Positions 514-55,741 of a stretch of DNA of 64,000 nt are shown piece by piece. Both the position numbers and the translations under genes were made by a program. This DNA comes from a phage, in the sequence record PZ495249.1, one strand, 5' to 3'. Numbering within the stretch: position 1 is the first letter of the stretch; each line of letters begins with the position of its first letter. Under the pieces are notes generated by a model. The model saw only the letters and a list, made by a program, of their open reading frames with translations, had not been told where the DNA came from and ran no database searches.

Positions 514-1617
514 ATGTCTAAGAGTCCATTCCTGAATGCCGTGAAAGGCAATAAGCATGGTGCAAGTGTTCTGACCACTGTTGATGACAAACGCTCTGCA
601 CTGGCTCCAAGTGTGCTGGAAGCAAGCCCTGTGTTTGCTCCGGCAGTTGTTAAACCTGTACCTGCTCTTCCTGCAATGAGCCGCAAGGAGATTGATGGAG
701 TGGGCGCTGAGGCAGGACTAACTCTGCGTAGCCTCAACAGCGAAGTGCTGAAACACCAACGTGGTAATCAAGGCGGGGAGATGAATGAACGCCTCACTGC
801 CCTGATTAAACAGGCTAAACAGCTTGATCCTTCTTCAATCAAGCAGTCAAAAGGCGTTGGTAAATTCATCAAGAAGATCATGGGGCTGAAAGAAGATCTG
901 TTTGCTGAGTACGACAACGTTAACAACCGTATTGATGTTCTGGTGAAAGAACTGGAAGGTGATGTACGTAAAGAGGAAGATTCACTTGTCTATCTGGAAA
1001 AACTGAAATCCGCTATTGCTCAGTACGCCATGAGCCTTAACCGTGATGTGGAACTCCTGACGGACACCTACGCAAAAGAGGAAGCACGTTTCTTGAATAC
1101 ACCAGAGGAACAAGTGGAAACTCGTACCGAGATCCGTGATACCCTGGATATTCTGGAGATTCGTATTGCTGACCTTAAAGCACTGCGTCTGCTGTGTGTT
1201 CAGATGGGACCACGAGTGAACAGTATGATCAAGGTTAGCGAGATGCTTATGCGATCTGCTCGTAACATAGTGAACAACGTTATTCCGGCTTACTCTGCAA
1301 ACTTCTCAATGTATATTGAGAGCTTACGCCAGGCAGAAGCTGGTAAAACTCAGGCTAATGTGTTGGATGAATTCAACACTGCAATTCAAATGGGGAGCGA
1401 TTTGGCTGCACAAAACATTATCAATGCTACGGCTCTGTCTAACCGTCAGATTCTGGACATTGAAACCCTGCGTAAAGATCAGGAAAACCTGGTTAAAATG
1501 CTGGAAGAAACCAACCGCATCAATACCGAGGCTCGCGCCGCTCGTATTGATTACATCAACGAGGTTCAATCCCTGGAAGATGGGATGATCCAAAAAGTCA
1601 AATCTGGCTTAGTGTAA
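514..1617 (+). CDS. TelA-like (toxic anion resistance family) protein, tentative
   Basis: 367 aa, coiled-coil-rich all-alpha protein of typical TelA length; sits directly upstream of a vWA and a TerD gene; RBS aaggagaaagaa before ATG; no motif-level confirmation. Confidence 0.4.
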   Translation: MSKSPFLNAVKGNKHGASVLTTVDDKRSALAPSVLEASPVFAPAVVKPVPALPAMSRKEIDGVGAEAGLTLRSLNSEVLKHQRGNQGGEMNERLTALIKQAKQLDPSSIKQSKGVGKFIKKIMGLKEDLFAEYDNVNNRIDVLVKELEGDVRKEEDSLVYLEKLKSAIAQYAMSLNRDVELLTDTYAKEEARFLNTPEEQVETRTEIRDTLDILEIRIADLKALRLLCVQMGPRVNSMIKVSEMLMRSARNIVNNVIPAYSANFSMYIESLRQAEAGKTQANVLDEFNTAIQMGSDLAAQNIINATALSNRQILDIETLRKDQENLVKMLEETNRINTEARAARIDYINEVQSLEDGMIQKVKSGLV

Positions 1618-1626
1618 GGAGAAAAC

Positions 1627-1833
1627 ATGCGAATTCGTATTTATAAACTGGAAGATGGGTATGTAGCTGTTCGTTATGATGATGAAGAGCAGTTTGCAGG
1701 GAACAGTGATCATATTTTATCTTTCCCTAATCTGGAGCCTGTGTTGGCTGTTGGTCGTGAACTCTATGGTTATGACCAGTGTTCAGCAGAACGCTTTGAT
1801 GAACTTGAGTTGGTCAAGGAGTTTGAGGTATGA
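1627..1833 (+). CDS. hypothetical small protein
   Basis: 68 aa ORF; RBS ggagaaaac before ATG; tightly packed with neighbours. Confidence 0.45.
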   Translation: MRIRIYKLEDGYVAVRYDDEEQFAGNSDHILSFPNLEPVLAVGRELYGYDQCSAERFDELELVKEFEV

Positions 1834-2069
1834 AGATTGCTCTCGTAATTGCCGATTGCGGTGATGGTAGCGCCACTATTCGTTTCTTCAAAGATGTTGA
1901 CTTTGCGGAGAAGATCGCTTACCATGATTACTTCTGTGAAGAGTTAGCAATGAGCGAAGGTGGAACAATCATCGAAGTGCCTGATGACTTCAAACCACCC
2001 GCTGGTTGGTCAGATCAAGACTATCGTGAAGAAGTAGAACGTGCAGGGTTGGATTTAGACGATGAGTGA
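1830..2069 (+). CDS. hypothetical small acidic protein
   Basis: 79 aa ORF; ATGA start/stop overlap with upstream gene. Confidence 0.45.
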   Translation: MKIALVIADCGDGSATIRFFKDVDFAEKIAYHDYFCEELAMSEGGTIIEVPDDFKPPAGWSDQDYREEVERAGLDLDDE

Positions 2070-2268
2070 TAAAATTGTCTTGACACGCGAAGAGTTGAAG
2101 ACTATCATTGAAGACGCATTCATAGATGGTTGGAAGCAAGGGCAAGAATCGGATTGGTACGATGCAGAAGACTTTTTGCACTACCACGCCAATCCAGATG
2201 GTTCTGAGGAAGAAACTCAGTCTGAAACAACCATCGCAATCAAAAACTTAATGGAGGAAAAATTATGA
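2062..2268 (+). CDS. hypothetical small protein
   Basis: 68 aa ORF overlapping the stop of the upstream gene. Confidence 0.45.
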   Translation: MSDKIVLTREELKTIIEDAFIDGWKQGQESDWYDAEDFLHYHANPDGSEEETQSETTIAIKNLMEEKL

Positions 2269-3059
2269 GCGAGAAAATTAGTCTGGTGAAACGTCAGGAA
2301 CAACTGGTAATCAGCCTGAAAAAGAAAAAGATTGCACAGATCGTACTGCGCGTTGCATCTGCACTGGATATCTCCGGTAGTATGCACAGCCTATATCGTA
2401 ACGGGACTGTTAGCGATTTCGTTGGTAAACTCCTGCCGTTCGGTATGCAGTTTGACGATAACCAGCAGATCGATATGTGGGCGTTCAACAACTACTCTTC
2501 TGAACTGCCGCCAGCTACCGCTGACGTGTACGATGACTATGTAGGTAAATGTATGCGTAACGTATCCATCAATGGTGGCACGAGCTACGCACCAGTTATC
2601 CAGGCGATCTACGACGAATACTTTGGCTCTACGCCAATGAAAACTGTATCTCGTGAAGTTGAGGTACAAGAGCAGCGTCCGGTGAGCGGTTTCTTTGCCA
2701 AACTGACAGGTAAAACTGAAACCGTTACTGTCAAGAAAACGATCACAGAACAAGTACCAGATACCTCTGCGCCTGTGGATACCACACCTGCAATGGTGTT
2801 CTTCCAGACTGATGGTGAGAACAATGACGAATCCGCAGTACGCGCTGTACTGAACCGTAACAAAGGTAAACCTATCTACTGGTTCATGGTTGGTGTTGGT
2901 AATGCTCGCTTTAGCTTCCTGAAAGCTCTGGCAAATGAATACGATAACGTAGCTTTCATCGGCATTGATGACCTGGATCTGTCTGACGAGCAACTCTATG
3001 ACAAACTGCTGTCTGATGAGTTTGGTCAGTGGGTTGAGAAAGTAGGTGCAAAAAACTAA
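2265..3059 (+). CDS. von Willebrand factor A domain protein with TerD-like N-terminal ISLxK motifs
   Basis: MIDAS DISGS, then GGTSYAPVIQA and FFQTDGENND vWA motifs; N-terminus MSEKISLVK...ISLKK resembles the TerD N-terminus of the next gene; RBS ggagg. Confidence 0.75.
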   Translation: MSEKISLVKRQEQLVISLKKKKIAQIVLRVASALDISGSMHSLYRNGTVSDFVGKLLPFGMQFDDNQQIDMWAFNNYSSELPPATADVYDDYVGKCMRNVSINGGTSYAPVIQAIYDEYFGSTPMKTVSREVEVQEQRPVSGFFAKLTGKTETVTVKKTITEQVPDTSAPVDTTPAMVFFQTDGENNDESAVRAVLNRNKGKPIYWFMVGVGNARFSFLKALANEYDNVAFIGIDDLDLSDEQLYDKLLSDEFGQWVEKVGAKN

Positions 3060-3068
3060 AAATAGTTG

Positions 3069-3096
3069 TTGACTTACCCGAAGAAATACGTAGAAT
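3069..3096 (+). promoter_or_regulatory. sigma70-like promoter TTGACT-N16-TAGAAT upstream of terD
   Basis: -35 TTGACT at 3069..3074, -10 TAGAAT at 3091..3096. Confidence 0.45.
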
Positions 3097-3109
3097 AGAT
3101 TACATCAAA

Positions 3110-3130
3110 GGGGAAGAGCGGTTCTTCCCC
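3110..3130 (+). promoter_or_regulatory. leader hairpin in the terD 5' UTR
   Basis: Perfect 8 bp stem GGGGAAGA/TCTTCCCC with loop GCGGT between the promoter and the RBS. Confidence 0.4.
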
Positions 3131-3164
3131 CCAGTAAATGAAAACAGAAAGAAGGAGAACATAC

Positions 3165-3767
3165 ATGTCTGAGAAAATTTCCCTGAAAAAAGGTTCCACC
3201 GAAAAGATCTCCCTGAAAAAGATCGCACCTCTGCTGAAAGAGATTCGTCTGGAATTCTCCTGGAAATCATCCACTAAACTGGATCTGGACGTAAGCGCAC
3301 TGGTGTGCCGTCATAATGCCTCTGGTAATCCAGAAATGCTGTCTGCCCGTCACCTGGTTTGCTATGCAAACAAAGTTGATCCAGAGCGTTCAACCTTCGC
3401 TGGCGAAGATGTTCGTGATGGTACTGGCAACCTGGAGCAGATCGATGTTACTCTGAGTAAAATCTCCCAGAATGCAGATGAAATTGCATTCGTGATCACC
3501 ATCGACGATGAAACTGGTCAGAAGCGCCTCGGTCATGCCTCCGAAGGTATGCTGAAAATCTTCGACGCAGAACGTAACGTCGAGATCCTGGACTTTGACT
3601 TCCTTGCACCGGAAGTTGCTGGTAACACCATCTGTCACGTAGCTTCGCTGGTTCGCGAAGATGGCGAATGGAAACTGAAAGCCTACGGTGTTGGTAAAGC
3701 AGGTATGGATATCTGTGATGTGGTGGTAGCATTCGGTGGTGACGTCAACTGGTTTGACTGCCCGTAA
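3165..3767 (+). CDS. terD: TerD-family protein (tellurite resistance / stress response)
   Basis: Protein-level resemblance to E. coli TerD as recalled: MSEKISLKKG...ISLKK, DLDVSALVC, DGEWKLKAYGVGKAG; RBS agaaggagaa before ATG at 3165 (ORF track start 3138 is upstream of the RBS). Confidence 0.85.
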   Translation: MSEKISLKKGSTEKISLKKIAPLLKEIRLEFSWKSSTKLDLDVSALVCRHNASGNPEMLSARHLVCYANKVDPERSTFAGEDVRDGTGNLEQIDVTLSKISQNADEIAFVITIDDETGQKRLGHASEGMLKIFDAERNVEILDFDFLAPEVAGNTICHVASLVREDGEWKLKAYGVGKAGMDICDVVVAFGGDVNWFDCP

Positions 3768-4485: not shown

Positions 4486-4511
4486 GAGAGGGGCGAAAGC
4501 CCCTTTCTCTT
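4486..4511 (+). terminator. intrinsic terminator
   Basis: AGGGGC-GAAA-GCCCCT followed by TTCTCTT. Confidence 0.55.
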
Positions 4512-4569
4512 GCAAAATCCTCCCTCCTGTGATAGAATAATAGTTCGTAAAACAAAAAGGAGGCAAAAT

Positions 4570-5094
4570 TTGCTGATACGAAACTTTGTAACAATTGCGT
4601 TACTATCATTAACTGCTTTTACATTTACACCTGTAATCGGCGTTGCCGAAGCTGCAAACGTAAAGACCGCTAAAGTAGTCCACAAGTGTACAAAGCGAGA
4701 TACGAAAGAAAATCTTTTAGCTTGTGCAATGTACGCAGAGAGCCGTAACCAAGGAAAGAAAGGAATGGCTGCTGTCGGTAATGTTGTTCTGAATCGTGTT
4801 AACGATCCTCAGTTCCCTAAGACCGTCAAAGGTGTTCTCTTCCAACCAGGACAATTCTCATACACGTATAAAGGCGCATTTAATGTCGTCGAAAAGGACA
4901 GATGGCAGGAGGCAAAGCATATTGCTGATCGCTTAATCTACCTTGATAAGAACTTCCCCGAAGCTCGTGATGCAACAGATGTAACGAAAGGGGCTAAGTA
5001 TTTCAAAAAGAAGAATATCCGTACCCATTGGGAGAAGGATATGATCTTGGTGTACCGTTACAAGGAACATCAATTCTATATACCTAAGAGCTAA
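4570..5094 (+). CDS. SleB-like cell-wall hydrolase with N-terminal signal peptide (candidate secreted endolysin)
   Basis: AMYAESRNQ...GNVVLNRV...FPKTV...QPGQFS resembles the Hydrolase_2/SleB family; predicted signal peptide MLIRNFVTIALLSLTAFTFTPVIGVAEAA; probable TTG start at 4570 after RBS aggagg. Confidence 0.6.
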   Translation: MLIRNFVTIALLSLTAFTFTPVIGVAEAANVKTAKVVHKCTKRDTKENLLACAMYAESRNQGKKGMAAVGNVVLNRVNDPQFPKTVKGVLFQPGQFSYTYKGAFNVVEKDRWQEAKHIADRLIYLDKNFPEARDATDVTKGAKYFKKKNIRTHWEKDMILVYRYKEHQFYIPKS

Positions 5095-5846: not shown

Positions 5847-6410
5847 ATGATCTTCCACATTACTCCCTATCTTTCTGGTGATATCGGCAAAGGCATCAAC
5901 GATACCATCCGTGAACTGCCGGAAGATAGTTGGATTTGCTTGAGGGATATCGACACGATGTTCCTACTACCAGAACAACCGATGTGGCTTGAAACCCTCG
6001 TCCGTTCTAACCCAGAGTATGATGTTATTGGTGCATCATGCAACCGCTTGGGATCTACTTACCAATTGTTCGGTAACGAAATAAGTGACGATTCAGACAT
6101 ACGCAATCACATAGAAATTGCGAAAGCAGCCCGAACAGCCTGGGGCAATAGCATTGAAGATGTTCCTCTGGGAGTACCACTTGCAGGATTCTTCTTATTA
6201 TTCAGGAAGAGTTTGTGGCAAGAAATTCCATTCGAAGAAAGATCTATTCAATTCGATTTAATCTTCTCTAATACTCTACACGCAGCAGGAAAGCGATTAG
6301 GAATCATGCGAGGAATGTATCTGTTCCATACTTATCGTCTTGGAGCAATCGATCCACGTAGAGCCATTTCGCATCTCATTCACTGCCAGGATATGGAGAA
6401 GGTAATATGA
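5847..6410 (+). CDS. hypothetical protein, possible small GT-A-like glycosyltransferase
   Basis: 187 aa; RBS ggagggagaa; DxD-like RDID motif; first gene of a three-gene block. Confidence 0.3.
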   Translation: MIFHITPYLSGDIGKGINDTIRELPEDSWICLRDIDTMFLLPEQPMWLETLVRSNPEYDVIGASCNRLGSTYQLFGNEISDDSDIRNHIEIAKAARTAWGNSIEDVPLGVPLAGFFLLFRKSLWQEIPFEERSIQFDLIFSNTLHAAGKRLGIMRGMYLFHTYRLGAIDPRRAISHLIHCQDMEKVI

Positions 6411-6436
6411 TTGATAATTTAAGGAGGATGTTAAAC

Positions 6437-7405
6437 ATGCTTGTTCATAAGCCCCGCTTATATTGTGATAACAAGTTAGGGAGTGGGTGCGACTATCACC
6501 GAGTGGTGATGCCTTTTGCTGATAATAAATTCAAACCAAAAGAGAATGTATTGGTGTTCAACCGTATTTATTCTCGTGGTGCAGAAGAGGTTCGCCGTCT
6601 GAAAGAGCGTGGTGTTAAAGTGGTAGTAGATTTAGATGACTTCTATGAACTTAACCCTGAGCATTACCTGGCAAGCGTGTTCACAAGTCACACACAGAAC
6701 ATCATTGACATGGTGAAATTAGCAGATATTGTTATCGTCACCACTGAATATCTGGCTTACAAGGTAAGGCCACTGAATAGAAATGTGGTGGTTATCCGTA
6801 ACGCACTGCCTTTCGACACTGGTCAGTTTACCCTGAGTGAAGATAAAGAGTCAGACACTCCGCTGATATGGGCGGGTGGTGCAAGTCACTATCCTGATCT
6901 ATCTCTTGTCTCGAACAGTTTTGATGATGATTTGTTAACAATTGCCGGATATGAAGAGCACAAGTCTGCTCCTGCTGGTAGTCATCAGCAATTGACAACT
7001 GCCGAGTGGAGAAAAGTCAGACGTAAGCTACCAAATGCACAATACAAACCAGCAGTACATCATTTAGGCGAGTATATGTCGGTGTACGATGGTCATGCCG
7101 TAGCTATTGCTCCCTTGGTTGATAACGACTTCAATGCTTGTAAAAGCAACTTGAAGATCCTGGAGGCAGGAGCTAAGGGACTACCTATCATTTGTTCTAA
7201 GGTGTTACCATATTATAATCCGGTGGATGCTAACGTGGTGTTTTATGCTGAATCCCGCGCAGAATGGCACTACGAGGTGGTGAAACTTCTTCGTAATCCA
7301 AACTACGCAGAGGATCGTGGTTTAATGCTTGCAGAACACGTCAGAACACATTACAATCTTGATGATGCAAATGAATTGCGCCGACAAGTGATCGAAAGTT
7401 TATAA
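6437..7405 (+). CDS. putative GT-B glycosyltransferase, paralog A
   Basis: Shares DGH.V.IAPLVDN.FN.(A/C)KSNLKILEAGAKGLP.ICS and MDLDD blocks with the next gene; start chosen at third in-frame ATG by RBS spacing (6407 and 6428 also possible). Confidence 0.5.
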   Translation: MLVHKPRLYCDNKLGSGCDYHRVVMPFADNKFKPKENVLVFNRIYSRGAEEVRRLKERGVKVVVDLDDFYELNPEHYLASVFTSHTQNIIDMVKLADIVIVTTEYLAYKVRPLNRNVVVIRNALPFDTGQFTLSEDKESDTPLIWAGGASHYPDLSLVSNSFDDDLLTIAGYEEHKSAPAGSHQQLTTAEWRKVRRKLPNAQYKPAVHHLGEYMSVYDGHAVAIAPLVDNDFNACKSNLKILEAGAKGLPIICSKVLPYYNPVDANVVFYAESRAEWHYEVVKLLRNPNYAEDRGLMLAEHVRTHYNLDDANELRRQVIESL

Positions 7406-7413
7406 GGAGTTCT

Positions 7414-8358
7414 ATGCCTAACATTGTGCTTGACACACGCGACGGACATAATTATAGTGTCTGTGATTTCCATAGAATTATCCTTCCATACAAACGAGCG
7501 CTCACCATTAACCCACAACACAATATCTTCGTGTTCAATGGTGTGCCTACTCGTGGGAAGTCAGGATTCCTGGCTCTCAAACAACTTGGTTTCAAAATGG
7601 TTATGGATCTTGATGACTCTCTACATATTCCAGAAGGACATATGCTTGAGGACTTGTTTGATACCCGTATCCGTGATGACCTCAAGTGGTTTTTGGAACG
7701 GAGTGATTTGGTAACAACAACTACTCCTGCTCTCCAGAAAGAACTCTCAGAATATAATGACAACGTGCATATTGTGCCGAATGGTTTGCCTTTCGATGAA
7801 TGGCAATTCACCATAACAAAGGATCGTTATTCTAAGAGTCCACTGGTGTGGGCTGGCAGTGAAACCCATAAACATGACTTGGCAATCCTACCGCCCCTCG
7901 GTAAGATGCTAACACTCTGCGGATTCCGTAGAGACAAAGAAGAGCTAAGTAGCTTGCAATGGATATTGATACGAGAAGATATTCAACCTGATTGTATCTA
8001 TGAAGGTGTCCGACCATACGCCACTTACATGGAATCGTATGACGGTCATCAGGTGAGCATTGCTCCACTTGTGGATAATCCTTTTAATAATGCAAAAAGC
8101 AATCTCAAGATTCTTGAGGCTGGAGCCAAAGGCTTACCGCTGATTTGTTCTCCTCGTGAGAATTATTTCACCGAAGAGTTTAAGGATCTGGTTTACTTTG
8201 CCGATTCATTATCCGAATGGAAAGATCTGGTAGAATACTTAGTAGAGTCTCCAGATATTTGTGTTGAAAAGGGAATGGCCTTAGCCAAATATGTACGTGC
8301 TCAATACAGTATTGACGCATTAAACGAGACTCGTAGATTACTTATTGAGAGGTTGTAA
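7414..8358 (+). CDS. putative GT-B glycosyltransferase, paralog B
   Basis: Tandem paralog of 6437..7405 with the same conserved C-terminal block. Confidence 0.5.
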   Translation: MPNIVLDTRDGHNYSVCDFHRIILPYKRALTINPQHNIFVFNGVPTRGKSGFLALKQLGFKMVMDLDDSLHIPEGHMLEDLFDTRIRDDLKWFLERSDLVTTTTPALQKELSEYNDNVHIVPNGLPFDEWQFTITKDRYSKSPLVWAGSETHKHDLAILPPLGKMLTLCGFRRDKEELSSLQWILIREDIQPDCIYEGVRPYATYMESYDGHQVSIAPLVDNPFNNAKSNLKILEAGAKGLPLICSPRENYFTEEFKDLVYFADSLSEWKDLVEYLVESPDICVEKGMALAKYVRAQYSIDALNETRRLLIERL

Positions 8359-25999: not shown

Positions 26000-27487
26000 T
26001 TAGACTCCGTATTCGTATGAAATGTTTTCAAGGTCGAATGATGGTACAACGTTGTACGCAGGAACGATATCGCTCTCAGTGTATTTACTGTCATCCTCAG
26101 TATTAAGTTTAACATAAACACGCAGAGAAGTCAAGCGTCCAAACGCCAGAGCGGAATAAATTACCCCTTTAATCTGGTCGTTAGTAACAGTTGAACCTAA
26201 TTCGAAGTAAGCTTGCAGGTCAGAGAGAGCCTTGACAATGTTTTCTCTTTCTGTCGTACTTAGAGTAGAACCGTTAGCACTCTGATAAACCAGTTTCAGA
26301 GAGTAAACTTGGCTATCACCTGGAGAGAAACGAATAATCTCTTGACCACCGTCTTCCGTTGTGATAGTAATAGCTGTAGTCCCATAAGTCAGGGTGTTGA
26401 TTGGCTTAGTGTCATAAATAACTTTAGCCACTTCCTCAGCGTTACCACCGAATACGATAGTTTGGAAAGTAAAGGCTGGTGCATATGTCTGATCGTGCAG
26501 TGTCGGGTTATCATAAATCTTAACCTTAGTTACACCGTCAGTTAACAGCAGAGCTTTGACAATCGCAGCACGAGTAGCAGCATTTGCTTCATCAAGGTTG
26601 TCATTGAAACGTGAACGGAATTCCGCATCGGTTTCAACATCACGACCTGGGGAGAATGCATAGAAGTTACCAGTGTCTAAGTAACCCGCAAATGTTGAAG
26701 AGATACCAGTGATACTCTCCACGCCAACAGGGTTATATCCAGCCTCTGCACCAACGACAGGAATTTCACTCCACTTAATTCCGATAGGAATGGAAGCGTA
26801 GAATTTCATTGGAGTAACAAGCCCAACGGGATTAACGTTATCTGAGGTATTAAAACCTACGTATACGTTGCTTGAATCGTTCCATACAAGGTTTCTATCC
26901 GTGATAGATACGTTTGCCTTAATGAAATTCATTAAGTCTGTAATGAACGTTGTAGAGTTCGGATTTAGCGTTTTACTGTTCAGACCACCATCACTTGCGT
27001 TCTGCATGTAGAATGTAATAGCGTTTACACCAGATCCTGTTGCGTTAGCCTTGGAAATAGTGTATGCTCCAATCTTAGCATTAAGCATGGTAGGAGTGCT
27101 GACGTAATATGTCAAGTCGTTATCTGCATTGAAATAGGTTTCTGTGCCTAATTCATAAGTCCAAGCAGCTTTGTTGTTTGTCTTAACGTAAGCATAACCA
27201 CTACCAGCAGATGCACCTTGGCGGTAGAAACCACGTTTAGAGAAAATCTCGTCGAGGTAAATACCTTCTGCGCCATCTAAGGTTTGCGTGTTATAGACAC
27301 CCTGCATACCTTCCCACAATGTGTAGTCGGTGTATGCAACAATGCGGAACAACTGCCCGAAAACCGTATCTTCGGAAGTTGCAGTGTCTGCCCCGAAAGT
27401 GTTTTTCAGGGAAGTCATGTAGTTATTCAGAATGTCATCGAATGTCGGGATTACAAATCCCGCATCTGTTAGGCCATAATCTGCCAT
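26000..27487 (-). CDS. baseplate J-like protein
   Basis: 495 aa; size and position typical of Baseplate_J proteins. Confidence 0.5.
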   Translation of the reverse strand: MADYGLTDAGFVIPTFDDILNNYMTSLKNTFGADTATSEDTVFGQLFRIVAYTDYTLWEGMQGVYNTQTLDGAEGIYLDEIFSKRGFYRQGASAGSGYAYVKTNNKAAWTYELGTETYFNADNDLTYYVSTPTMLNAKIGAYTISKANATGSGVNAITFYMQNASDGGLNSKTLNPNSTTFITDLMNFIKANVSITDRNLVWNDSSNVYVGFNTSDNVNPVGLVTPMKFYASIPIGIKWSEIPVVGAEAGYNPVGVESITGISSTFAGYLDTGNFYAFSPGRDVETDAEFRSRFNDNLDEANAATRAAIVKALLLTDGVTKVKIYDNPTLHDQTYAPAFTFQTIVFGGNAEEVAKVIYDTKPINTLTYGTTAITITTEDGGQEIIRFSPGDSQVYSLKLVYQSANGSTLSTTERENIVKALSDLQAYFELGSTVTNDQIKGVIYSALAFGRLTSLRVYVKLNTEDDSKYTESDIVPAYNVVPSFDLENISYEYGV

Positions 27488-27735
27488 TAATCTTCCTCCT
27501 TCTTATCAGGGGCAGGTGTTCTGCCCCAACGTAGATCGATCAGATTCTTCATTAAGCGTGAAGGTGTGATCATGAAAACGAAAGCCCAACCCATCCACTC
27601 AGGGATCTCTTTTTCGATCCCTAAGAAGATGAACATTCCTGTCATGGTAAGCATTCCGACTGCGTTCCACACTTTGGTAGAACTAACTTTGCTGTTTGGA
27701 TAAGTACAAAACATTCCGATTAAAAATTTCTTCAT
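27487..27735 (-). CDS. small membrane protein
   Basis: 82 aa with two or three hydrophobic segments (GMLTMTGMFIFLGI, WMGWAFVFMITP); overlapping stops and starts with both neighbours. Confidence 0.45.
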   Translation of the reverse strand: MKKFLIGMFCTYPNSKVSSTKVWNAVGMLTMTGMFIFLGIEKEIPEWMGWAFVFMITPSRLMKNLIDLRWGRTPAPDKKEED

Positions 27736-46803: not shown

Positions 46804-48897
46804 TTATCTGCGACGAGTAGACCAAGGCTGAGCGAAGGAAGCCCTTGAACTGTTTTGCAGTTTTCCGTATCCGGTGGTTGCTCCCATCGGTGTAGGAATG
46901 GCTACAGCTTTGAATACTTGCTCTTTTGACAATGTGTTGAAGCATGATGCCGCAGCATCGGGAATATCGTCTTTAAGCGTTGCGGTAGAACGTTCCCCGT
47001 TGAACGATTCGAGTTCTTTGTAAAAGTGATCCAAAGTCTCTTTGTTCGGGAATGATTCTTCAACGATGTAAACGAAACCATTCTGACATGCACTACTGAA
47101 CGGCATGAAACGCTGGAGCTTCTTCTTGTTACCAGGCATTGCGTCCGGCTTAACAATGAATCCCTCTGCGATCAATTTCTTCGCTGACTCGGTGTATTCA
47201 ATTAAACCTGCACCAGATGGATCTTTCGGTAACACTACCGTCACTTCATCACCATCAATTTTACATTGCTGGAGAATCAGATTATCACGATCACCTGGTA
47301 GGCGACGGAATCGACCAAAGATCTTGCTGTCTTTATCCTTAGCGTCATAATCATAATCACCAAAGATATAAATATTCCCGTCCGAGTCTTTCGCCATCTT
47401 AACAGATGTTGTATAGTCAGGGTAACGATAAGATTCAGTTGGAACAGAAACAGCCTTATCCCATGCTCGCATGTATTTCAGGTTGTTTGGCAGATCTGCA
47501 AACTTGATTACGTTCAGCCATTCGCGCTGGAAGAAACTCTCTTCTTGCGCACGAGCAAACCAGCAACCATCCAGAAGCTGTGCTCTCTTAACCGCAGTCT
47601 GAGATTTCAGAGCAGCAAGATATTTAGGGTTGAGGCGAATCAATTCAGGGTTATCGAAGATTGTACCACCGATGAACACGAAACTCTGTGGTTCAATGTC
47701 AACCATCTCTCCGGTGTTTGGGTTGATGATTTGACAGTTGTCAGGATACTTCTCTTTGAGTTCTTCTGCTGTCTCAGCAAATACTGGTTCATCTTGAACG
47801 ATGATGAAGTAAAGCTGCTTACCGCACATATCTTCACGAGGGAATCCCGCTTCATCCAGATATGGCAACACCCAATTCAATACCCAACTATCTGCATCAG
47901 GGTTACAGGTGCAAAGCATGAATGACGTTTCAGATTCAGAACGAAGACGACCAAGCAGGTATAGGAATTCATACTGTGTGAAGTGTGTCAATTCGTCGAA
48001 ACCAATCATAGAATACTGTGTACCCTGATGGTTAGTCTCTGCTGTTACGTTATCATTCTCTAAGTGGTCAAACTTGAGCGTACCACCTTTCGTTGCTCTG
48101 AATTCCATCTCCATTGCCTGTTCACGAACGTGCGGGCGTAGTGGAGAATATAGTTTCTTAGCCTCAGAGAACAAGCCCCCTGGTTTACGGTGAGCAGTGG
48201 TATTCTTACGGAATAAGATTCCCCCGAAGAGAGGATCTTTGTATGCGTATTTAAGCGCCTTTAAAAGCAGTAGGCGAGACTTACCGCTATTGCCAGTAAC
48301 GAAGATGTGATCGCCACGTCTAAAGACAACATAGCTACTTGGAGTTTCAAAACAGTATTTCTTATCATCGGTTGTCATTACCTCGTGAATTTTCAGGTGA
48401 GTGCTTGGCTTACCTTGAATGTTAAACGGTACACGCTTTCCAAACGGGTTTTCAATATATCCTCTGAGAGGATGCCCTGCTTGTTGTAACGCGATCAGAT
48501 CCCCAACAAGGATCTCGAAATGCTTCTTGGATTTCTTCTTCTTGTAGAATACAAATCGGTGTTCCATACTCAATTCTTGGAATACACCAACACCATTCGT
48601 AATACGATGTAAGTTGTCACTTGTTTCATGTTCTACGAAATACGGTGAAGTTAGTTCAAGACGTTTATTACGAGGATTGTATTGATAAATATCCTCTCCT
48701 GAATATCCGCTGATTGGCTTCCAGCCATCCACTGTCAGATATTCTGTTTCTGCACTGACACATCCCGCAGCCCCACCGTAAATCATTAGCTCCGGCATTA
48801 AATCCATCGCCAGTGTTTGTTTACCTGGTTGTGCTTTTACTTCAATGTCAGCATCTGCCAACGACATATTGGCCTTAGCTTTTGGTGTCCTTGCCAC
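46804..48897 (-). CDS. terL: terminase large subunit interrupted by a candidate mini-intein
   Basis: Walker A split as YGGAAG / SGKS by a 158-codon insert; Walker B IGFDELTHF; CTCNP motif; GTG start after RBS aggagg. Confidence 0.75.
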   Translation of the reverse strand: MARTPKAKANMSLADADIEVKAQPGKQTLAMDLMPELMIYGGAAGCVSAETEYLTVDGWKPISGYSGEDIYQYNPRNKRLELTSPYFVEHETSDNLHRITNGVGVFQELSMEHRFVFYKKKKSKKHFEILVGDLIALQQAGHPLRGYIENPFGKRVPFNIQGKPSTHLKIHEVMTTDDKKYCFETPSSYVVFRRGDHIFVTGNSGKSRLLLLKALKYAYKDPLFGGILFRKNTTAHRKPGGLFSEAKKLYSPLRPHVREQAMEMEFRATKGGTLKFDHLENDNVTAETNHQGTQYSMIGFDELTHFTQYEFLYLLGRLRSESETSFMLCTCNPDADSWVLNWVLPYLDEAGFPREDMCGKQLYFIIVQDEPVFAETAEELKEKYPDNCQIINPNTGEMVDIEPQSFVFIGGTIFDNPELIRLNPKYLAALKSQTAVKRAQLLDGCWFARAQEESFFQREWLNVIKFADLPNNLKYMRAWDKAVSVPTESYRYPDYTTSVKMAKDSDGNIYIFGDYDYDAKDKDSKIFGRFRRLPGDRDNLILQQCKIDGDEVTVVLPKDPSGAGLIEYTESAKKLIAEGFIVKPDAMPGNKKKLQRFMPFSSACQNGFVYIVEESFPNKETLDHFYKELESFNGERSTATLKDDIPDAAASCFNTLSKEQVFKAVAIPTPMGATTGYGKLQNSSRASFAQPWSTRRR
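48289..48762 (-). mobile_element. candidate mini-intein (Hint domain, no endonuclease domain) in the terminase P-loop
   Basis: Begins with Cys (CVSAETEYLTVDGW), ends with Asn followed by Ser; 158 aa; removal restores GGAAGSGKS. Confidence 0.55.
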
Positions 48898-48905
48898 TTA
48901 TCCTC

Positions 48906-49235
48906 CTACTTGGAAATGATACCTTTCTCTTGCAATGTTCTGATATAATTCTGCAAGGATGTTAGTTTAGCTCTATCTTTACTCCACAACACATTGTTTG
49001 AGGCTTGGTTATCAACCACCTCAGAACGGCTCACGCCGCGCTCTATCTGTTTTGTAGTGTAAGGAATAGGGTGAGATGGGTTATCCATGTCTGTAGCGTC
49101 TGGAGCCTTAATCTGCTCCGTTGCTACCGCTTTGCATTGATCAATTAGAATCGGTTGGGAAGCTTTCGTTGATGATGCGCAGCCCGTCATCGCGAGGGGC
49201 AAAGCAAGACATAGAGCCAGCAGAAGTTTTCGCAT
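48906..49235 (-). CDS. o-spanin (Rz1-like outer-membrane lipoprotein)
   Basis: MRKLLLALCLALPLAMTGC signal peptide with lipobox Cys; start lies inside the i-spanin gene in another frame. Confidence 0.6.
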   Translation of the reverse strand: MRKLLLALCLALPLAMTGCASSTKASQPILIDQCKAVATEQIKAPDATDMDNPSHPIPYTTKQIERGVSRSEVVDNQASNNVLWSKDRAKLTSLQNYIRTLQEKGIISK

Positions 49236-49584
49236 AGTCAGTCTTCTCTTGGTTAGTCTTCCTTTCTTTCTTATCAAGTTGCTCACGAAGATCTTTGTTC
49301 GTTGCTGAAAGAGAGGTGATTTGTTTATTAAGATCAGTTCTGTCCTTGTCGGCTTGTGCCTGGAGAACATCAAACTGTTGTTTAGCTTTTGCCTGATTAT
49401 TCTTATCAACTTGCACTTGATATGCAATACCAGCACCATACCCTTCTTGGTATATGCTGTCTCGGATACTTGCTGCACATAGATATAGAACAATCACAGA
49501 TGCAATGATGAGAATAGCACTTCTCACCCACTTATTCTGAAATATCTTCGCCAGTAGGCTCAGGAATGTCGTCATAATCTGCAA
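49141..49584 (-). CDS. i-spanin (Rz-like)
   Basis: N-terminal transmembrane helix SAILIIASVIVLYLCAASI followed by a charged coiled coil. Confidence 0.6.
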   Translation of the reverse strand: MQIMTTFLSLLAKIFQNKWVRSAILIIASVIVLYLCAASIRDSIYQEGYGAGIAYQVQVDKNNQAKAKQQFDVLQAQADKDRTDLNKQITSLSATNKDLREQLDKKERKTNQEKTDYAKTSAGSMSCFAPRDDGLRIINESFPTDSN

Positions 49585-50449: not shown

Positions 50450-50524
50450 TGGTTGTAGCAGATGGAATCGAACCATCATCAATCGGTTATCAGCCGAACG
50501 TATTAGCCGTTATACTATGCCACA
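50450..50524 (-). tRNA. tRNA-Ile (anticodon GAT)
   Basis: 7 bp acceptor with encoded CCA, loop CTGATAA, T arm GATGG-TTCGATT-CCATC; hand-folded. Confidence 0.55.
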
Positions 50525-50530
50525 ATTGTT

Positions 50531-50613
50531 TGGCATCCAGGTGAGGAATCTAACCCCTTGAAACTGGTTTTGGAGGCCAGCAACGGGAACACCCATTTTT
50601 AATCTACCCAGAT
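50531..50613 (-). tRNA. tRNA-like element, possibly Trp (CCA) with aberrant D region
   Basis: Acceptor pairs with two G/U wobbles; loop CTCCAAA; T loop TTAGATT lacks C56; D region about 7 nt too long. Confidence 0.25.
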
Positions 50614-50619
50614 ATTGTT

Positions 50620-50695
50620 TGGAGGCGGGAGCCGGAATCGAACCGACCTGCGACAAGCATATGAAACTTGTGAGTTCCCAGAACTCTATCCCGCA
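50620..50695 (-). tRNA. tRNA-Met (anticodon CAT) with U1/C72 mismatch
   Basis: Loop TTCATAT, T arm GTCGG-TTCGATT-CCGGC, CCA encoded. Confidence 0.5.
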
Positions 50696-50776
50696 CTTTT
50701 GGTTGATAGTAAGAGAATCAAACTCTTCTCACAACGCCGTATGAAAGCGTCCGAAACATCAGCTTCACACTATCAA

Positions 50777-51040
50777 TTAAACACGATGGATTATTTTAAC
50801 TGTCTCACCCTTATCATTCATAAGGTAGGCACTTTCATTCCTATGAATAAAGTCCGTAGAGTTGCCACTAATGACACTTGCAATAACACCATCCAGCTTA
50901 TCATAACCTTCAAAATGATATTGGATGTGTATATTTCCATCAAGTTCTATATAATGTTCTTCTTCATCTACCTCGTAAGGTACTGAGTCATAAATTTTTG
51001 TCCCTTTGGGGAACTTGCGAACTATTTTCAATGTATACAT
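50777..51040 (-). CDS. hypothetical protein inside the tRNA array
   Basis: 87 aa; RBS gaaggaaa. Confidence 0.4.
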   Translation of the reverse strand: MYTLKIVRKFPKGTKIYDSVPYEVDEEEHYIELDGNIHIQYHFEGYDKLDGVIASVISGNSTDFIHRNESAYLMNDKGETVKIIHRV

Positions 51041-51124
51041 AGTATTTCCTTCGTAGTGTTTATATTAGTAATATGCCGTCCCAAGCCGAACGGCGATTAG
51101 TGTTTTAGCTTGGCATTGATAATA

Positions 51125-51199
51125 TGGTACTTCCTGGAGGAATCGAACCACCGACGCTCACCTTGTAAGGATGACGTTCTACCATTGAACTAAGGAAGT
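51125..51199 (-). tRNA. tRNA-Val (anticodon TAC)
   Basis: D arm GTTC-AATGGTA-GAAC, loop CTTACAA, T loop TTCGATT. Confidence 0.6.
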
Positions 51200-51272
51200 A
51201 TGGCGGGGATTTTCCGCACTGTCTATCGCGATATGGACTCGGACAGTGTTCTCGGCTAAATACCCCATTGTT

Positions 51273-51359
51273 TGGTACATCAGGTCAGACTCGAACTGAC
51301 ACGCCCTCACGAGCACTGGAACCTAAATCCAGGGCGTCTACCAATTTCGCCACTGATGC
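51273..51359 (-). tRNA. tRNA-Leu (anticodon TAG), long variable arm
   Basis: Loop TTTAGGT, 15 nt variable arm, T loop TTCGAGT. Confidence 0.6.
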
Positions 51360-51367
51360 ATTTAATT

Positions 51368-51444
51368 TGGTGGAGAAGTGGAGAATCGAACTCCATACTC
51401 GAAGGTGCAAACCTCGTGTTTTAACCGAATATTACTACATCCCC
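51368..51444 (-). tRNA. tRNA-Ala (anticodon TGC)
   Basis: Loop TTTGCAC; G3/U70 wobble in the acceptor stem (Ala identity element); T arm TGGAG-TTCGATT-CTCCA. Confidence 0.6.
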
Positions 51445-51506
51445 AATTTGTATACACTACACAGAAGATAGGTCTGATTGCCTCGGCAGTTGCCGTAGTG
51501 TTTATC

Positions 51507-51582
51507 TGGTACGGATGGAAGGAGTCGAACCTCCGACGCAGGGCTTCGTAGACCCTCGTTCTATCCACTGAACTACACCCGT
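51507..51582 (-). tRNA. tRNA-Arg (anticodon ACG)
   Basis: D arm GTTC-AGTGGATA-GAAC, loop CTACGAA, T arm GGAGG-TTCGACT-CCTTC. Confidence 0.7.
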
Positions 51583-51588
51583 ATTGTT

Positions 51589-51663
51589 TGGTGCAGAGTG
51601 TTGGTAACGATCCAACCTGTGTGGCTTTTCAGACCACCACTAATCCATCTCAGTTAACTCTGC
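51589..51663 (-). tRNA. tRNA-Phe (anticodon GAA)
   Basis: Loop CTGAAAA; T loop ATCGTTA (A54/U58 covariation). Confidence 0.6.
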
Positions 51664-51669
51664 ATAATC

Positions 51670-51745
51670 TGGTCAGTGAGAGAGGACTCGAACCTCCAAC
51701 AGCTACGCCCCAAACGTAACACTCTACCACTTGAGCTACTCACTG
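51670..51745 (-). tRNA. tRNA-Pro (anticodon TGG)
   Basis: C1-G72 first pair typical of bacterial tRNA-Pro; loop TTTGGGG. Confidence 0.6.
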
Positions 51746-51752
51746 ATAAATC

Positions 51753-51827
51753 TGGCTACAGGTCTTGGGATCGAACCAAGTCATACGGTGGTCAAAGCAC
51801 CGTGCCTTCCCATTTGGCTACCCTGTA
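51753..51827 (-). tRNA. tRNA-Gln (anticodon TTG)
   Basis: U1-A72 and 3 bp D stem GCC/GGC as in E. coli tRNA-Gln; loop CTTTGAC. Confidence 0.6.
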
Positions 51828-51834
51828 ATTAAAT

Positions 51835-51922
51835 TGGTATCGTGGACGAGATTCGAACTCGCAAGGGATTACTCCCGCCAGATTGAAAGTCTGGTTACTT
51901 AGGCCGTTTTGTATACCACGAT
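51835..51922 (-). tRNA. long-variable-arm (type II) tRNA with anticodon loop CTTTCAA (anticodon TTC); isotype ambiguous
   Basis: Perfect acceptor ATCGTGG/CCACGAT, anticodon stem CCAGA/TCTGG, 15 nt variable arm with GGGA-GTAA-TCCC stem, T arm GCGAG-TTCGAAT-CTCGT. Confidence 0.45.
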
Positions 51923-52025
51923 ATAAAATTTCTTAAAGAGAACTGCTGAAAGTTGAAGGAGAAAACCATGAGCGAAAAGAGAAAAGGTTTCCAGCAGTTC
52001 CATTTAAAAAATCTCGTAGGGTTGT

Positions 52026-52104
52026 TGGCGCGGGTGACAGGATTCGAACCTGCGACGAACTGGGTGGAAGCCAGACACTCTACCAAACTGAGTTACACAC
52101 GCGC
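52026..52104 (-). tRNA. tRNA-Gly (anticodon TCC)
   Basis: Loop CTTCCAC, T arm GCAGG-TTCGAAT-CCTGT; D region slightly long. Confidence 0.5.
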
Positions 52105-52170
52105 TGATTAACAACTCTATAATACTACTCTACTACATTTTAGCCCTCGTTGTCAAGGGCTTTTGACAAA

Positions 52171-52497
52171 TTATTTCAGAAGTTTTTCCAAACCTTGCTT
52201 CATCGCATACTCTATGAAGAAGTTTAGTTCACCGATTAACTCTGGTTCCCACTGGTCTTCCAAGCCATAACATGAACAATGTCCACCATGAACTTCATAA
52301 AACTTATTGTCACGCTTATCGTAGAAGTAAACATCGGATGATCCAGTGTAGCACTCATACGTATAATCTGCGTACAGGATGATAATATCATCTTCTGTTA
52401 GATCAACATGATAATCACTCATCACTTGATCGAAGTCTGAAAAGTCGTTATCATACACGTCAACATGCAGATACTTTTCTAATTCTTGTTTATCCAT
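52171..52497 (-). CDS. hypothetical acidic protein inside the tRNA array
   Basis: 108 aa; strong RBS aagaggaggaaac; HGGHCSCYG motif. Confidence 0.5.
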   Translation of the reverse strand: MDKQELEKYLHVDVYDNDFSDFDQVMSDYHVDLTEDDIIILYADYTYECYTGSSDVYFYDKRDNKFYEVHGGHCSCYGLEDQWEPELIGELNFFIEYAMKQGLEKLLK

Positions 52498-52737
52498 GTT
52501 TCCTCCTCTTTAGAATATGTGGGGCAGTGACGGATACCCCTTTGGGTGACAAACCCTACGTTCGGAAGCTCGGTCAGACTGACACAAAACACGAAGTCAA
52601 ATGTCCTTCCTCCCTGCTGTCGATTGGAGAGAGCCGATCCCCTCTGAACTTCATTTAAGCGCGATACCACTTAGGGCTGTCTAACACTTTCCTGAACTTA
52701 CCAATCCACCTAATCCCAGTCACGGTTTCGGATTTTC

Positions 52738-52813
52738 TGGTGCTCCCACACTGAATCGAACAGTGATTTGCGGGTTACAAAGCCGCAGTAATAGGCCATT
52801 ATACGATAGGAGC
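52738..52813 (-). tRNA. tRNA-Thr (anticodon TGT)
   Basis: T arm CACTG-TTCGATT-CAGTG, loop TTTGTAA closed by a C/C mismatch. Confidence 0.55.
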
Positions 52814-52819
52814 AAATTT

Positions 52820-52895
52820 TGGCGGGCAATATTGGATTCGAACCAATTACCATTCGGTTAACAGCCGACCGCACATCCGTATGTGCTTATCACCC
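52820..52895 (-). tRNA. tRNA-Asn (anticodon GTT)
   Basis: Loop CTGTTAA, T arm ATTGG-TTCGAAT-CCAAT, acceptor with two G/U pairs. Confidence 0.55.
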
Positions 52896-52973
52896 ATGTT
52901 CTTCGTTAAGAGTAGGCGCGTTTCATCAGTCGCCTCGTGTTATTTTCTCCTGTTTCCAGGCTCCCTTTAGTGC

Positions 52974-53096
52974 TCGCGAGGGAGGGATTCGAACCACTCA
53001 CCTCTGCCAGAGCCAACCAGATCTTTCGGGTAATTACTCCGTCCAACCATTTGATTAACCTGCTGGCAGCGTCCATCGCCCTTAGACTGCCTCGCG
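52974..53096 (-). ncRNA. tRNA-like element, 123 nt, perfect 7 bp acceptor but weak T stem (pseudo-tRNA or tRNA with insertion)
   Basis: Acceptor CGCGAGG/CCTCGCG, T loop TTCGAAT present, about 35 nt more than a type II tRNA. Confidence 0.2.
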
Positions 53097-53136
53097 TCTG
53101 TCAATTCAGATGCCACTAAAGCTCTCTCAACTAATT

Positions 53137-53220
53137 TGGTGTGGGTAGATGGATTCGAACCACCGCGCCTTTCGGATCAGATTTACAGTCTGGTGCATTC
53201 AGCCACTCTGCCATACCCAC
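53137..53220 (-). tRNA. tRNA-Tyr (anticodon GTA), long variable arm
   Basis: Loop CTGTAAA, T arm GGTGG-TTCGAAT-CCATC, CCA encoded. Confidence 0.7.
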
Positions 53221-53226
53221 ATTGTT

Positions 53227-53303
53227 TGGTGCGCCGGAAAGGATTCGAACCTTTAGTCCTCTCATTAAAAGTGAGATGCCTTATCCAGTTTAGCTACCGA
53301 CGC
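53227..53303 (-). tRNA. tRNA-Lys (anticodon TTT)
   Basis: D arm GCTA-AACTGGATAA, loop CTTTTAA, T arm AAAGG-TTCGAAT-CCTTT. Confidence 0.7.
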
Positions 53304-53443
53304 ATAAATTTTCTTTAGGATAGGAAGTGTGGGGCACTTCACTATTTATATCGGTGATGGTTGCCGCCATCTGCCGAAAGTTTACTCTATCTAAGTAAGA
53401 GTCGAAACGCTACACGAATAGTATTTCTATCATAAAGAAAACT

Positions 53444-53529
53444 TGGCGGAAGAGGGGAGGGTTGAACTCCCACGCCCTTTCGGACGGCAGTTTAGCAAAC
53501 TGCTATGGCTACCATTTCATCACTCTTCC
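53444..53529 (-). tRNA. tRNA-Ser (anticodon GCT), long variable arm
   Basis: Loop TTGCTAA, 14 nt variable arm, T arm GGGAG-TTCAACC-CTCCC. Confidence 0.65.
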
Positions 53530-53537
53530 ATTTTGTT

Positions 53538-53614
53538 TGGCAGTCGCGACGGGTTACGATCCCGCATTCTCTCCCGTGACAGGGGAGTACCATTACCAAG
53601 CCAGCCCCGCGACT
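53538..53614 (-). tRNA. tRNA-Asp (anticodon GTC)
   Basis: Anticodon arm CTCCC-CTGTCAC-GGGAG; T loop ATCGTAA. Confidence 0.65.
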
Positions 53615-53621
53615 ATTAATT

Positions 53622-53711
53622 TGGAGGAAGATAATGGAGTCGAACCATCACCGTATCACTACAATGGGCCAGGGTTCAAATCTGGTTGCGTACCACTACG
53701 CCCTATCTTCC
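53622..53711 (-). tRNA. tRNA-Ser (anticodon TGA), long variable arm
   Basis: Acceptor GGAAGAT/ATCTTCC, loop TTTGAAC, long variable arm. Confidence 0.55.
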
Positions 53712-53775
53712 AATCTATACTTCTTAGTCTATCATACTTTTCAATCGGTTGTCAATAGCTTTTTGAAAATTATTT

Positions 53776-53853
53776 TGGTCGGGGAGATAGGACTCGAACC
53801 TACATTTCCTCCATTACGCTATACGGCTTAGAAGACCGCCACGGTACACCCCG
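53776..53853 (-). tRNA. tRNA-like element, possibly Arg (TCT), with aberrant D region
   Basis: T arm GTAGG-TTCGAGT-CCTAT and arm GCGGT-CTTCTAA-GCCGT present, but no canonical D arm and 19 nt between anticodon and T arms. Confidence 0.3.
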
Positions 53854-53881
53854 ATCTCTTAGTGCTGACTATAACATAACT

Positions 53882-54052
53882 TATTCGTTACTGTCAAGCT
53901 CTTTTTTAATTTCTTTTCTTGCTTTCTGACGTTCAGTGGCTTTACACACTTCCTGCCAAGATTCGTACTCGTCACCTTTACGGTAGCCACGGCTACGACA
54001 AAGGGAGCAGAGACAACCTTCTTGACGATATTTCAAACCATGAGGTTTCATA
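53882..54052 (-). CDS. hypothetical small Cys-rich protein (not in ORF track, 56 aa)
   Basis: ATG after strong RBS aaggaggatatATG; MKPHGLKYRQEGCLCSLCRSRGYRKGDEYESWQEVCK. Confidence 0.4.
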
Positions 54053-54064
54053 TATCCTCCTTAA

Positions 54065-54139
54065 TTGGTGAGCATTACCAGATTCGAACTGGTGTCTTTC
54101 GGGTTTAGAATCCTACGCTTTACCGCTAAGCTAAATGCC
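54065..54139 (-). tRNA. tRNA with anticodon CTA (candidate amber suppressor); low-confidence fold
   Basis: Acceptor GGGCATT/AATGCTC, D arm GCTT-AGCGGTA-AAGC, T arm ACCAG-TTCGAAT-CTGGT, loop TTCTAAA; anticodon stem has two mismatches. Confidence 0.35.
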
Positions 54140-54371
54140 CTTCGTAAATGTCACGACTATCAGGATCGTGATACAATTCTGCAATTTCTTTACTTAAAGT
54201 AGCTCTCAGTATAATCCCTTTGTGCGAAACAATCAAGTAGATTTTCGTTTCACTTACATCTCCAGGGGCTAAGAGTTTACCTCTTACAATCCGCAAACGT
54301 TCTGCTGAATACCCTTCTTCGAGATCAGCCAACATATCTGCCAACGATTTAGAGAAAGTTAACCGATGCAA
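54126..54371 (-). CDS. hypothetical protein (TTG start, weak)
   Basis: 81 aa ORF with weak RBS; 3' end overlaps the CTA tRNA. Confidence 0.25.
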   Translation of the reverse strand: MHRLTFSKSLADMLADLEEGYSAERLRIVRGKLLAPGDVSETKIYLIVSHKGIILRATLSKEIAELYHDPDSRDIYEGHLA

Positions 54372-55459: not shown

Positions 55460-55550
55460 TGGTACGGGTGACGAGATTCGAACTCGTAAGATCATCAAAG
55501 ACCTGGGGGATTTTAAGTCCCATGTGTACTGCCAATACCACCACACCCGC
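55460..55550 (-). tRNA. tRNA-Leu (anticodon TAA), long variable arm
   Basis: Anticodon arm GGGA-CTTAAAA-TCCC as in E. coli Leu-UAA; T arm ACGAG-TTCGAAT-CTCGT; 91 nt. Confidence 0.7.
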
Positions 55551-55558
55551 TTTATTTA

Positions 55559-55741
55559 TTATCGACGAAGAATATCAATCACTTCGCCAAGCAACGCACT
55601 GTACGCCGCATCTTCGAGAATATCCTTCTGGAGTTCACTGTCAATCCCTGTTACGCTCTCGACAGTATCTGTTACCGGAGATACAACATCACGAGCAACG
55701 CTGGTAACATCATCAAGCACTTCACCGATAAATCCGAACAT
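55559..55741 (-). CDS. hypothetical small acidic protein
   Basis: Start set at ATG 55741 after RBS aaagaggagaa. Confidence 0.4.
   Translation of the reverse strand: MFGFIGEVLDDVTSVARDVVSPVTDTVESVTGIDSELQKDILEDAAYSALLGEVIDILRR

Follow-up and report, generated by a model that had tools for sequence, protein, structure and literature searches.

A candidate Sec-exported accessory murein hydrolase of the SleB type in a phi92-like phage

Lys44 of the Oenococcus phage fOg44 is exported by the Sec system ahead of lysis, independently of a holin, and is the sole lysin of a phage with a Gram-positive host. SAR endolysins, such as Lyz of P1 and R21 of phage 21, gain Sec-dependent access to the periplasm through an N-terminal hydrophobic segment. 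Papers on phages related to the one studied here have already reported that a SleB-like protein carries a signal peptide, that it is encoded far from the spanins and that "two endolysins" are present. The Certrevirus CB7 paper describes a SleB-like protein with a signal peptide as conserved in all Vequintavirinae, places the spanins by the terminase gene and states, with data not shown there, that expression of the Certrevirus homologue on its own is toxic to E. coli (PMC7344957). The canonical lysins of CB7 and Septuagintavirus are M15-type peptidases (CB7: PMC7344957), and the rV5 paper names a lysozyme as the lysin. For the phi92-like phage BME3, the published description includes two endolysins, of which one is a lysozyme and the other a SleB homologue, and distant holin-like proteins, and mentions an 81-aa class II holin-like protein. 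The gene analyzed below is the ortholog of phi92 gp170.

The DNA under study (sequence record PZ495249.1; hereafter, the window) is a stretch of 64,000 nucleotides from a phi92-like myovirus (Stephanstirmvirinae, Justusliebigvirus) with a genome of roughly 145-150 kb, of which the window covers less than half. Its closest sequenced relatives are five records of Klebsiella phages of 142-150 kb, namely FKP3, KP13-26, KP2025 and two of phi1_175008, which share about 80% nucleotide identity and an identical gene order with it. The large terminase subunit is encoded in the window by a single uninterrupted 697-aa ORF (46804-48897, minus strand), whereas in FKP3 an HNH endonuclease gene divides it in two. 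At 50450-55838 lie 23 tRNA genes in an array; one of them, at 54066-54140 (minus strand), has the anticodon CTA (labeled "tRNA-Pyl" by ARAGORN) and could be an amber-suppressor tRNA.

The SleB-like gene occupies positions 4570-5094 of the plus strand and encodes 174 amino acid residues, from a TTG start at 4570 to a stop codon at 5092-5094. With the Pfam model Hydrolase_2 its product scores 78.4 bits, where the cutoff is 27 (E=7.2e-22), and the match spans positions 2-100 of the 100-position profile; PHROG 938, "endolysin", is matched at 4e-22. A search of the PDB with a profile of close homologues retrieved the SleB catalytic domains 4F55 (8.6e-11) and 4FET; Glu57 (codon 4738-4740) aligns with the glutamate of YGESRGE in 4F55, and the protein carries the Y-x-E-(A/S)-R-G motif. 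Word-indexed protein searches returned only relatives with at least 55% identity, and an exhaustive HMMER search supplied the necessary diversity. With the resulting alignment of 67 diverse homologues, the AF2 model reached a pLDDT of 89.6; with a shallower alignment of 18 close homologues it reached just 45.8. Only two PDB entries were significant matches in Foldseek, again 4F55 and 4FET (target TM-scores 0.76-0.79). Among the 67 aligned homologues, no residues besides Glu57 and Arg76 are invariant. The mature SleB-type (Hydrolase_2) catalytic domain, as recognized by Pfam, the PDB profile search, the AF2 model and Foldseek, is encoded at 4654..5094 (plus strand), and the predicted mature protein has 146 residues, a mass of 17.0 kDa and a pI of 9.8. 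A sequence-only reading of the window had identified a SleB-like hydrolase here, and the Pfam and PHROG matches, the fold and the invariant Glu57 bear this out.

Judged by its sequence, the protein shares the catalytic domain of SleB but is not a SleB, because its score with the spore SleB equivalog model TIGR02869 is far under the threshold (61.5 bits against a cutoff of 236.5, with the match limited to profile positions 76-157) and because Pfam finds no N-terminal peptidoglycan-binding (PG_binding) domain in the 174 residues. By analogy with SleB, it may be a lytic transglycosylase that cuts the MurNAc-GlcNAc bond.

Residues 1-28, encoded at 4570..4653 (plus strand), form a predicted signal peptide with an n-h-c layout that obeys the -3/-1 rule, with cleavage predicted after A-E-A. 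The N-terminus reads MLIRNFVTIALLSLTAFTFTPVIGVAEA/ANV (here and below, a slash marks a predicted cleavage site) and has a charged n-region followed by a hydrophobic h-region; Pro/Gly serve as helix breakers, and the residues at -3 and -1 are small. By region, it divides into MLIRN, FVTIALLSLTAFTF and TPVIGVAEA, the last having Pro and Gly ahead of the A-x-A site. The h-region is about 20 residues long and consists of 55% Leu/Phe/Ile/Val and 40% Gly/Ala/Ser/Thr. In 17 close homologues the hydrophobic core is retained while the cleavage region drifts (AEA, AKA, SEA, VDA, VYA), always in keeping with the -3/-1 rule. Textbook signals are seen in rV5-like (…LSLPVVAA/PKQ), T5-like (…FSFSSQA/SHD) and Sugarlandvirus (…SFHAQA/KID) homologues, and signals are also present in most of the 150 nearest cluster representatives from a library of 1.84 billion proteins. 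The signal-peptide stretch has low pLDDT in the AF2 model, as expected if it is detached. This layout, which persists across homologues although the sequence of the cleavage region changes, upholds the Sec-type signal peptide proposed earlier. From these features we infer that the pre-protein is exported and cleaved.

The cysteines of the mature domain also point to export. In the 67-sequence alignment they covary as strict pairs at positions {40,52}, at {49,87} or at both, apart from some variant pairings in a few sequences and a single sequence that lacks a pair in the mature domain; in the window protein, Cys40 and Cys52 are encoded at 4687-4689 and 4723-4725. The two pairs appear to substitute for each other: {40,52} is found in the phi92/rV5 clade and {49,87} in T5-like phages and many bacterial members, with a few proteins having both. 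Such a pattern would be expected of alternative structural disulfides in an oxidizing compartment, and the paired cysteines therefore lend independent support to a periplasmic location.

In the program-made list of ORFs the frame begins at 4510 and has 194 aa, but the true start codon is the TTG at 4570, which is preceded at a distance of 6 nt by the ribosome-binding site AAGGAGG (4557..4563, plus strand). The AGGAGG and the TTG are invariant in the window, FKP3, phi92 and Phapecoctavirus anhysbys. A weak start codon is thus kept behind a strong AGGAGG, as TTG in these four phi92/phAPEC8-like genomes and as GTG in the homologue of the rV5-like phage FFH2, and it may hold down the translation of an enzyme that could be dangerous. 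Further upstream, a GC-rich terminator-like hairpin (4486..4507, plus strand) closes the preceding block of TelA, vWA, TerD and gp171-like genes. Its predicted RNA folding energy is -20.2 kcal/mol (z = -3.8 against shuffled sequences), and FKP3, phi92 and anhysbys all retain it, with a stem pair that has changed from C-G to G-C in a compensatory manner. Between the hairpin and the gene, a promoter scan found a putative sigma-70-type promoter (4510..4538, plus strand) composed of TTGCAA, a 17-nt spacer and the extended -10 element TG-n-TAGAAT. Both hexamers (-35 and -10) and the TG are kept in four genomes of two genera, and the spacer is variable.

We considered reading "early" expression from this promoter and dropped it, as equally good promoters lie 5' of structural genes in the window. 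Sigma-70-type promoters occur genome-wide in rV5, according to the rV5 paper. Because similar promoters precede structural genes, in the window as in rV5, the promoter gives no date for the SleB-like gene, and the term "early region" was derived from position.

The gene belongs to the replication/non-structural module, and the structural genes are on the other strand. On its 5' side are genes for TelA, vWA-TerF-like and TerD proteins and a gp171-like gene; on its 3' side are three small soluble ORFs, followed by glycosyltransferase-like genes. The TelA, vWA-TerF-like and TerD genes, at 514-3767 (plus strand) directly 5' of the hydrolase, make up a cluster of the tellurite-resistance or membrane-stress type. 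The glycosyltransferase-like genes span 5847-8358 (plus strand) and number three in the window and four in phi92. In Vequintavirus the SleB-like ortholog overlaps the rIIA-rIIB start, and there, as at the Ter cluster, the neighbors are envelope-related.

The spanin pair is encoded far from this locus, directly upstream of the large terminase gene. The i-spanin (49141..49584, minus strand) has an N-terminal transmembrane segment and a coiled coil and matches PHROG 4297, "Rz-like spanin", at 3.6e-26. The o-spanin (48906..49235, minus strand) has the lipoprotein signal MRKLLLALCLALPLAMTG/C with the lipobox AMTG/C; its gene overlaps that of the i-spanin by 95 nt, and its FKP3 ortholog is annotated as a spanin. 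The separation from the hydrolase is 43.8 kb, so that the figure of about 44 kb given by the sequence-only reading stands, backed by the PHROG match and the lipobox. Its remark that no holin is evident beside either locus holds as well: our hydropathy scan found no transmembrane segment in the genes flanking the hydrolase or the spanins, within several kb, and none in the ORFs upstream of the i-spanin. The window has a single, tentative holin-like candidate, an 82-aa ORF among the baseplate genes (27487..27735, minus strand), with two hydrophobic segments and a charged C-terminus, which matches PHROG 1322, "membrane protein", at 8e-26. We rejected as a holin a hydrophobic ORF of 62 aa at 1676-1864, which is an out-of-frame overlap of conserved soluble genes.

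According to the earlier reading, the SleB-like protein was the only recognizable hydrolase. This is true of the 64-kb window, where no other murein-hydrolase Pfam domain was found among 30 proteins scanned, but not of the genome as judged from its relatives, the second enzyme having been hidden by the edge of the window. The FKP3 annotation contains a second "endolysin" at 119,988-120,515, about 75 kb from the SleB-like gene. Its product is a T4-lysozyme homologue with a PF00959 match, the catalytic Glu/Asp/Thr motif of T4 and no signal sequence. In all sequenced relatives, 72-82 kb separate the SleB-like gene from that of a cytoplasmic T4-type lysozyme of this kind. The window lacks the lysozyme gene because its expected position falls beyond the end, by about 20 kb. 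At 60% identity or more, about 138 phage records contain the T4-type lysozyme and about 132 the SleB-like gene. Both genes, again 72-82 kb apart, are present in two complete IMG/VR genomes of about 149 kb, and one metagenome, which provides the strongest link to the source genome, contains a copy 99% identical to the SleB-like protein of the window and a 91%-identical copy of the lysozyme on separate contigs. To judge from these relatives, the source genome most likely encodes a T4-type lysozyme as its proper lysis enzyme. No holin is found beside this lysozyme in the relatives, which indicates that the lysis genes are scattered as in T4. Of the classical endolysin/holin pair that had been named in advance as evidence against a lytic role for the SleB-like protein, the endolysin is thus present in every relative, and a holin is adjacent to it in none.

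Functional data are available for homologues. In a Tn-seq study of the Vequintavirus Bas54, which belongs to another subfamily than the phi92-like phages and uses a different canonical lysin, the SleB-like gene bas54_0065 took insertions at 32 of its 36 TA sites and is non-essential (bioRxiv 10.1101/2025.11.20.689424). The endolysin gene bas54_0202 (0 of 24 sites) and the spanin genes (0 of 29 and 0 of 19) were all essential in the same study (bioRxiv 10.1101/2025.11.20.689424). The product of bas54_0065 is a full-length Hydrolase_2 homologue of the window protein (39% identity, E=2e-38), with which it shares the signal peptide and the cysteine pair. In Bas54 (MZ501093, 58858-59358) the mean Tn-seq insertion count is 916 in the SleB-like gene and 149-416 in its neighbors, a difference of 2-6 times, which could reflect insertion bias or a slight advantage of gene loss on plates. 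A CRISPRi-ART paper and a second transposon paper contain nothing on the SleB-like gene. The endolysin of Bas54 is of a lambda-R-like type, and BLASTP shows no relation between it and the FKP3 lysozyme of the T4 type. T5-like phages have the same pair of enzymes as the phi92-like ones. With lambda-R-like, T4-type or M15 lysins depending on the lineage, the canonical lysin has been swapped and the exported SleB-type enzyme retained. Of the secreted endolysin suggested earlier, the first half is supported by the signal peptide, the paired cysteines and the toxicity of the Certrevirus homologue, whereas the T4-type lysozyme of the relatives and the Bas54 Tn-seq data argue against the second.

On balance, and with modest confidence, we favor the view that the gene encodes a Sec-exported, holin-independent accessory murein hydrolase that helps lysis beside a separate cytoplasmic endolysin. 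The host Sec system would export the pre-protein, and signal peptidase I would cut it after Ala28, releasing into the periplasm a 17-kDa, very basic soluble enzyme held by a Cys40-Cys52 disulfide. There, the SleB-type fold would use a single glutamate, Glu57, to cut the MurNAc-GlcNAc bond as a lytic transglycosylase, if the analogy with SleB holds. Because it would reach the murein without a holin, the protein would be a second, accessory muralytic enzyme and not the endolysin of the phage. The endolysin proper would be the cytoplasmic T4-type lysozyme, presumably acting with a holin and the terminase-adjacent spanins. Expression of the SleB-like protein, from a promoter of its own and the conserved weak TTG start, would probably be low. 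It would probably nick or pre-weaken the sacculus, making destruction of the wall at lysis faster or more robust, and would be dispensable under laboratory conditions. The level and timing of expression and the benefit to the phage are likewise inferred.

The non-essential phenotype in Bas54 is equally compatible with a role unrelated to lysis. Under this alternative, which we regard as possible though rather improbable, the exported hydrolase would serve wall remodeling or turnover during infection within a programme of envelope management; it might, for instance, enlarge the cell, block division, free wall precursors or adjust superinfection or the timing of lysis. Non-structural modules house the gene in four lineages, and it is never found with canonical lysis genes: it follows TelA/vWA-TerF/TerD in phi92-like phages, overlaps rIIA-rIIB in Vequintavirus and lies between the ligase and helicase genes in PAK_P3-like phages. 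The varying neighborhoods also mean that there is no conserved partner, and this weakens the argument. The transcript of PAK_P3 gp151 is equally abundant at 3.5 and 13 min (log2FC 0.62, not significant), and the PAK_P3 authors proposed this protein as the cause of an accumulation of wall precursors; however, it is only 30% identical to the window protein and has a different N-terminus. Toxicity on expression would fit lytic activity equally well.

Among rV5-, phi92- and T5-like phages, more than 1,000 genomes contain genes for signal-peptide SleB-like proteins. A broader conjecture, which we put forward tentatively and consider doubtful, is that these exported hydrolases of the SleB type, in large virulent phages that infect Gram-negative bacteria, form a conserved class of periplasmic wall-remodeling enzymes that are made before the late stage and are not lysis enzymes. 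If true, such enzymes, with envelope-stress genes (the Ter cluster or rIIA-rIIB) as neighbors, could tune when lysis occurs or the state of the infected-cell envelope. The rV5-, phi92- and T5-like phages retain a Sec-exported SleB-type enzyme beside interchangeable canonical endolysins, and yet it is dispensable in the one phage tested. For work on enzyme-based antibacterials, the database label "endolysin" is probably a misnomer for this enzyme.

That label, attached to such proteins in many databases, goes with an alternative in which the SleB-like protein is the principal endolysin, exported before lysis and activated by membrane depolarization in the manner of Lys44. A signal peptide joined to a muralytic domain would suit this role, as would its being the only hydrolase in the window. 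We nevertheless consider it unlikely, given the signal-less T4-type lysozyme in all relatives and the dispensability of the Bas54 ortholog in a phage in which another lysin is essential. Still less probable is a SAR endolysin, with an uncleaved weak N-terminal anchor freed on depolarization by a pinholin. The rather long hydrophobic segment and its share of Gly/Ala/Ser/Thr are in its favor. The small-residue site at -3/-1 after Pro/Gly is, however, kept in all lineages despite its drifting surroundings, no small membrane protein or pinholin candidate lies nearby, and T5- and rV5-like homologues have short, cleavable signals. A cleaved signal is the preferred reading of the sequence, because the segment is richer in Leu/Phe/Ile/Val than the Gly/Ala-rich anchors of SAR endolysins. 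Least credible of all is a virion-associated or released factor attacking other cells from outside, as a DNA-entry lysin or the anti-competitor weapon once suggested, a role for which the small, very basic mature protein might seem apt but in which it would still meet the outer membrane that shields Gram-negative neighbors, and against which stand a Sec signal directing it away from the site of virion assembly, a gene outside the structural module, the failure of mass spectrometry to detect the PA5oct homologue in virions and an ortholog dispensable for plaque formation in Bas54.

The favored reading, an accessory murein hydrolase that assists a separate endolysin, can be set against the described systems. 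Canonical holin-dependent endolysins are a poor match: the window protein has a signal peptide, no holin is adjacent and the Bas54 ortholog is dispensable. With Bacillus SleB (4F55, 4FET) it has in common the fold of the catalytic domain and the glutamate motif; it differs in lacking the N-terminal peptidoglycan-binding domain and in its setting, since the phage host makes no spores and offers no muramic-lactam substrate. SAR endolysins differ in their catalytic fold and in having a pinholin partner, whereas the window protein has a conserved cleavage site and a more hydrophobic segment. The predicted Sec signal with small residues at -3 and -1 is shared with Lys44; unlike the Oenococcus phage, the phi92-like phages have a separate cytoplasmic lysozyme, and the SleB-like ortholog is dispensable in Bas54. 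PAK_P3 gp151, named "cell wall hydrolase domain protein" and carrying Hydrolase_2, is likewise encoded in a DNA-metabolism module of a virulent myovirus, but its N-terminus is longer and is possibly a membrane anchor. Closer are the "cell wall hydrolases" of the Vequintavirinae (Bas54 bas54_0065, FFH2 gp002, CB7_83 and PVP-SE1 gp243), which share 39% identity over the full length, the signal peptide, the Cys40/Cys52 pair and the Hydrolase_2 domain; they differ in having rIIA/rIIB instead of the Ter cluster as neighbors and a lambda-R-like lysin or M15 peptidase as partner. The closest match, without substantive difference, is the group formed by phi92 gp170 and its Stephanstirmvirinae orthologs (FKP3 XCI78035 and the BME3 "SleB-like hydrolase"). 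They are equal in length and 75-92% identical to the window protein, follow the same order of gp171-like gene, hydrolase, three small ORFs and glycosyltransferases, and have the same upstream hairpin, promoter, ribosome-binding site and TTG start.
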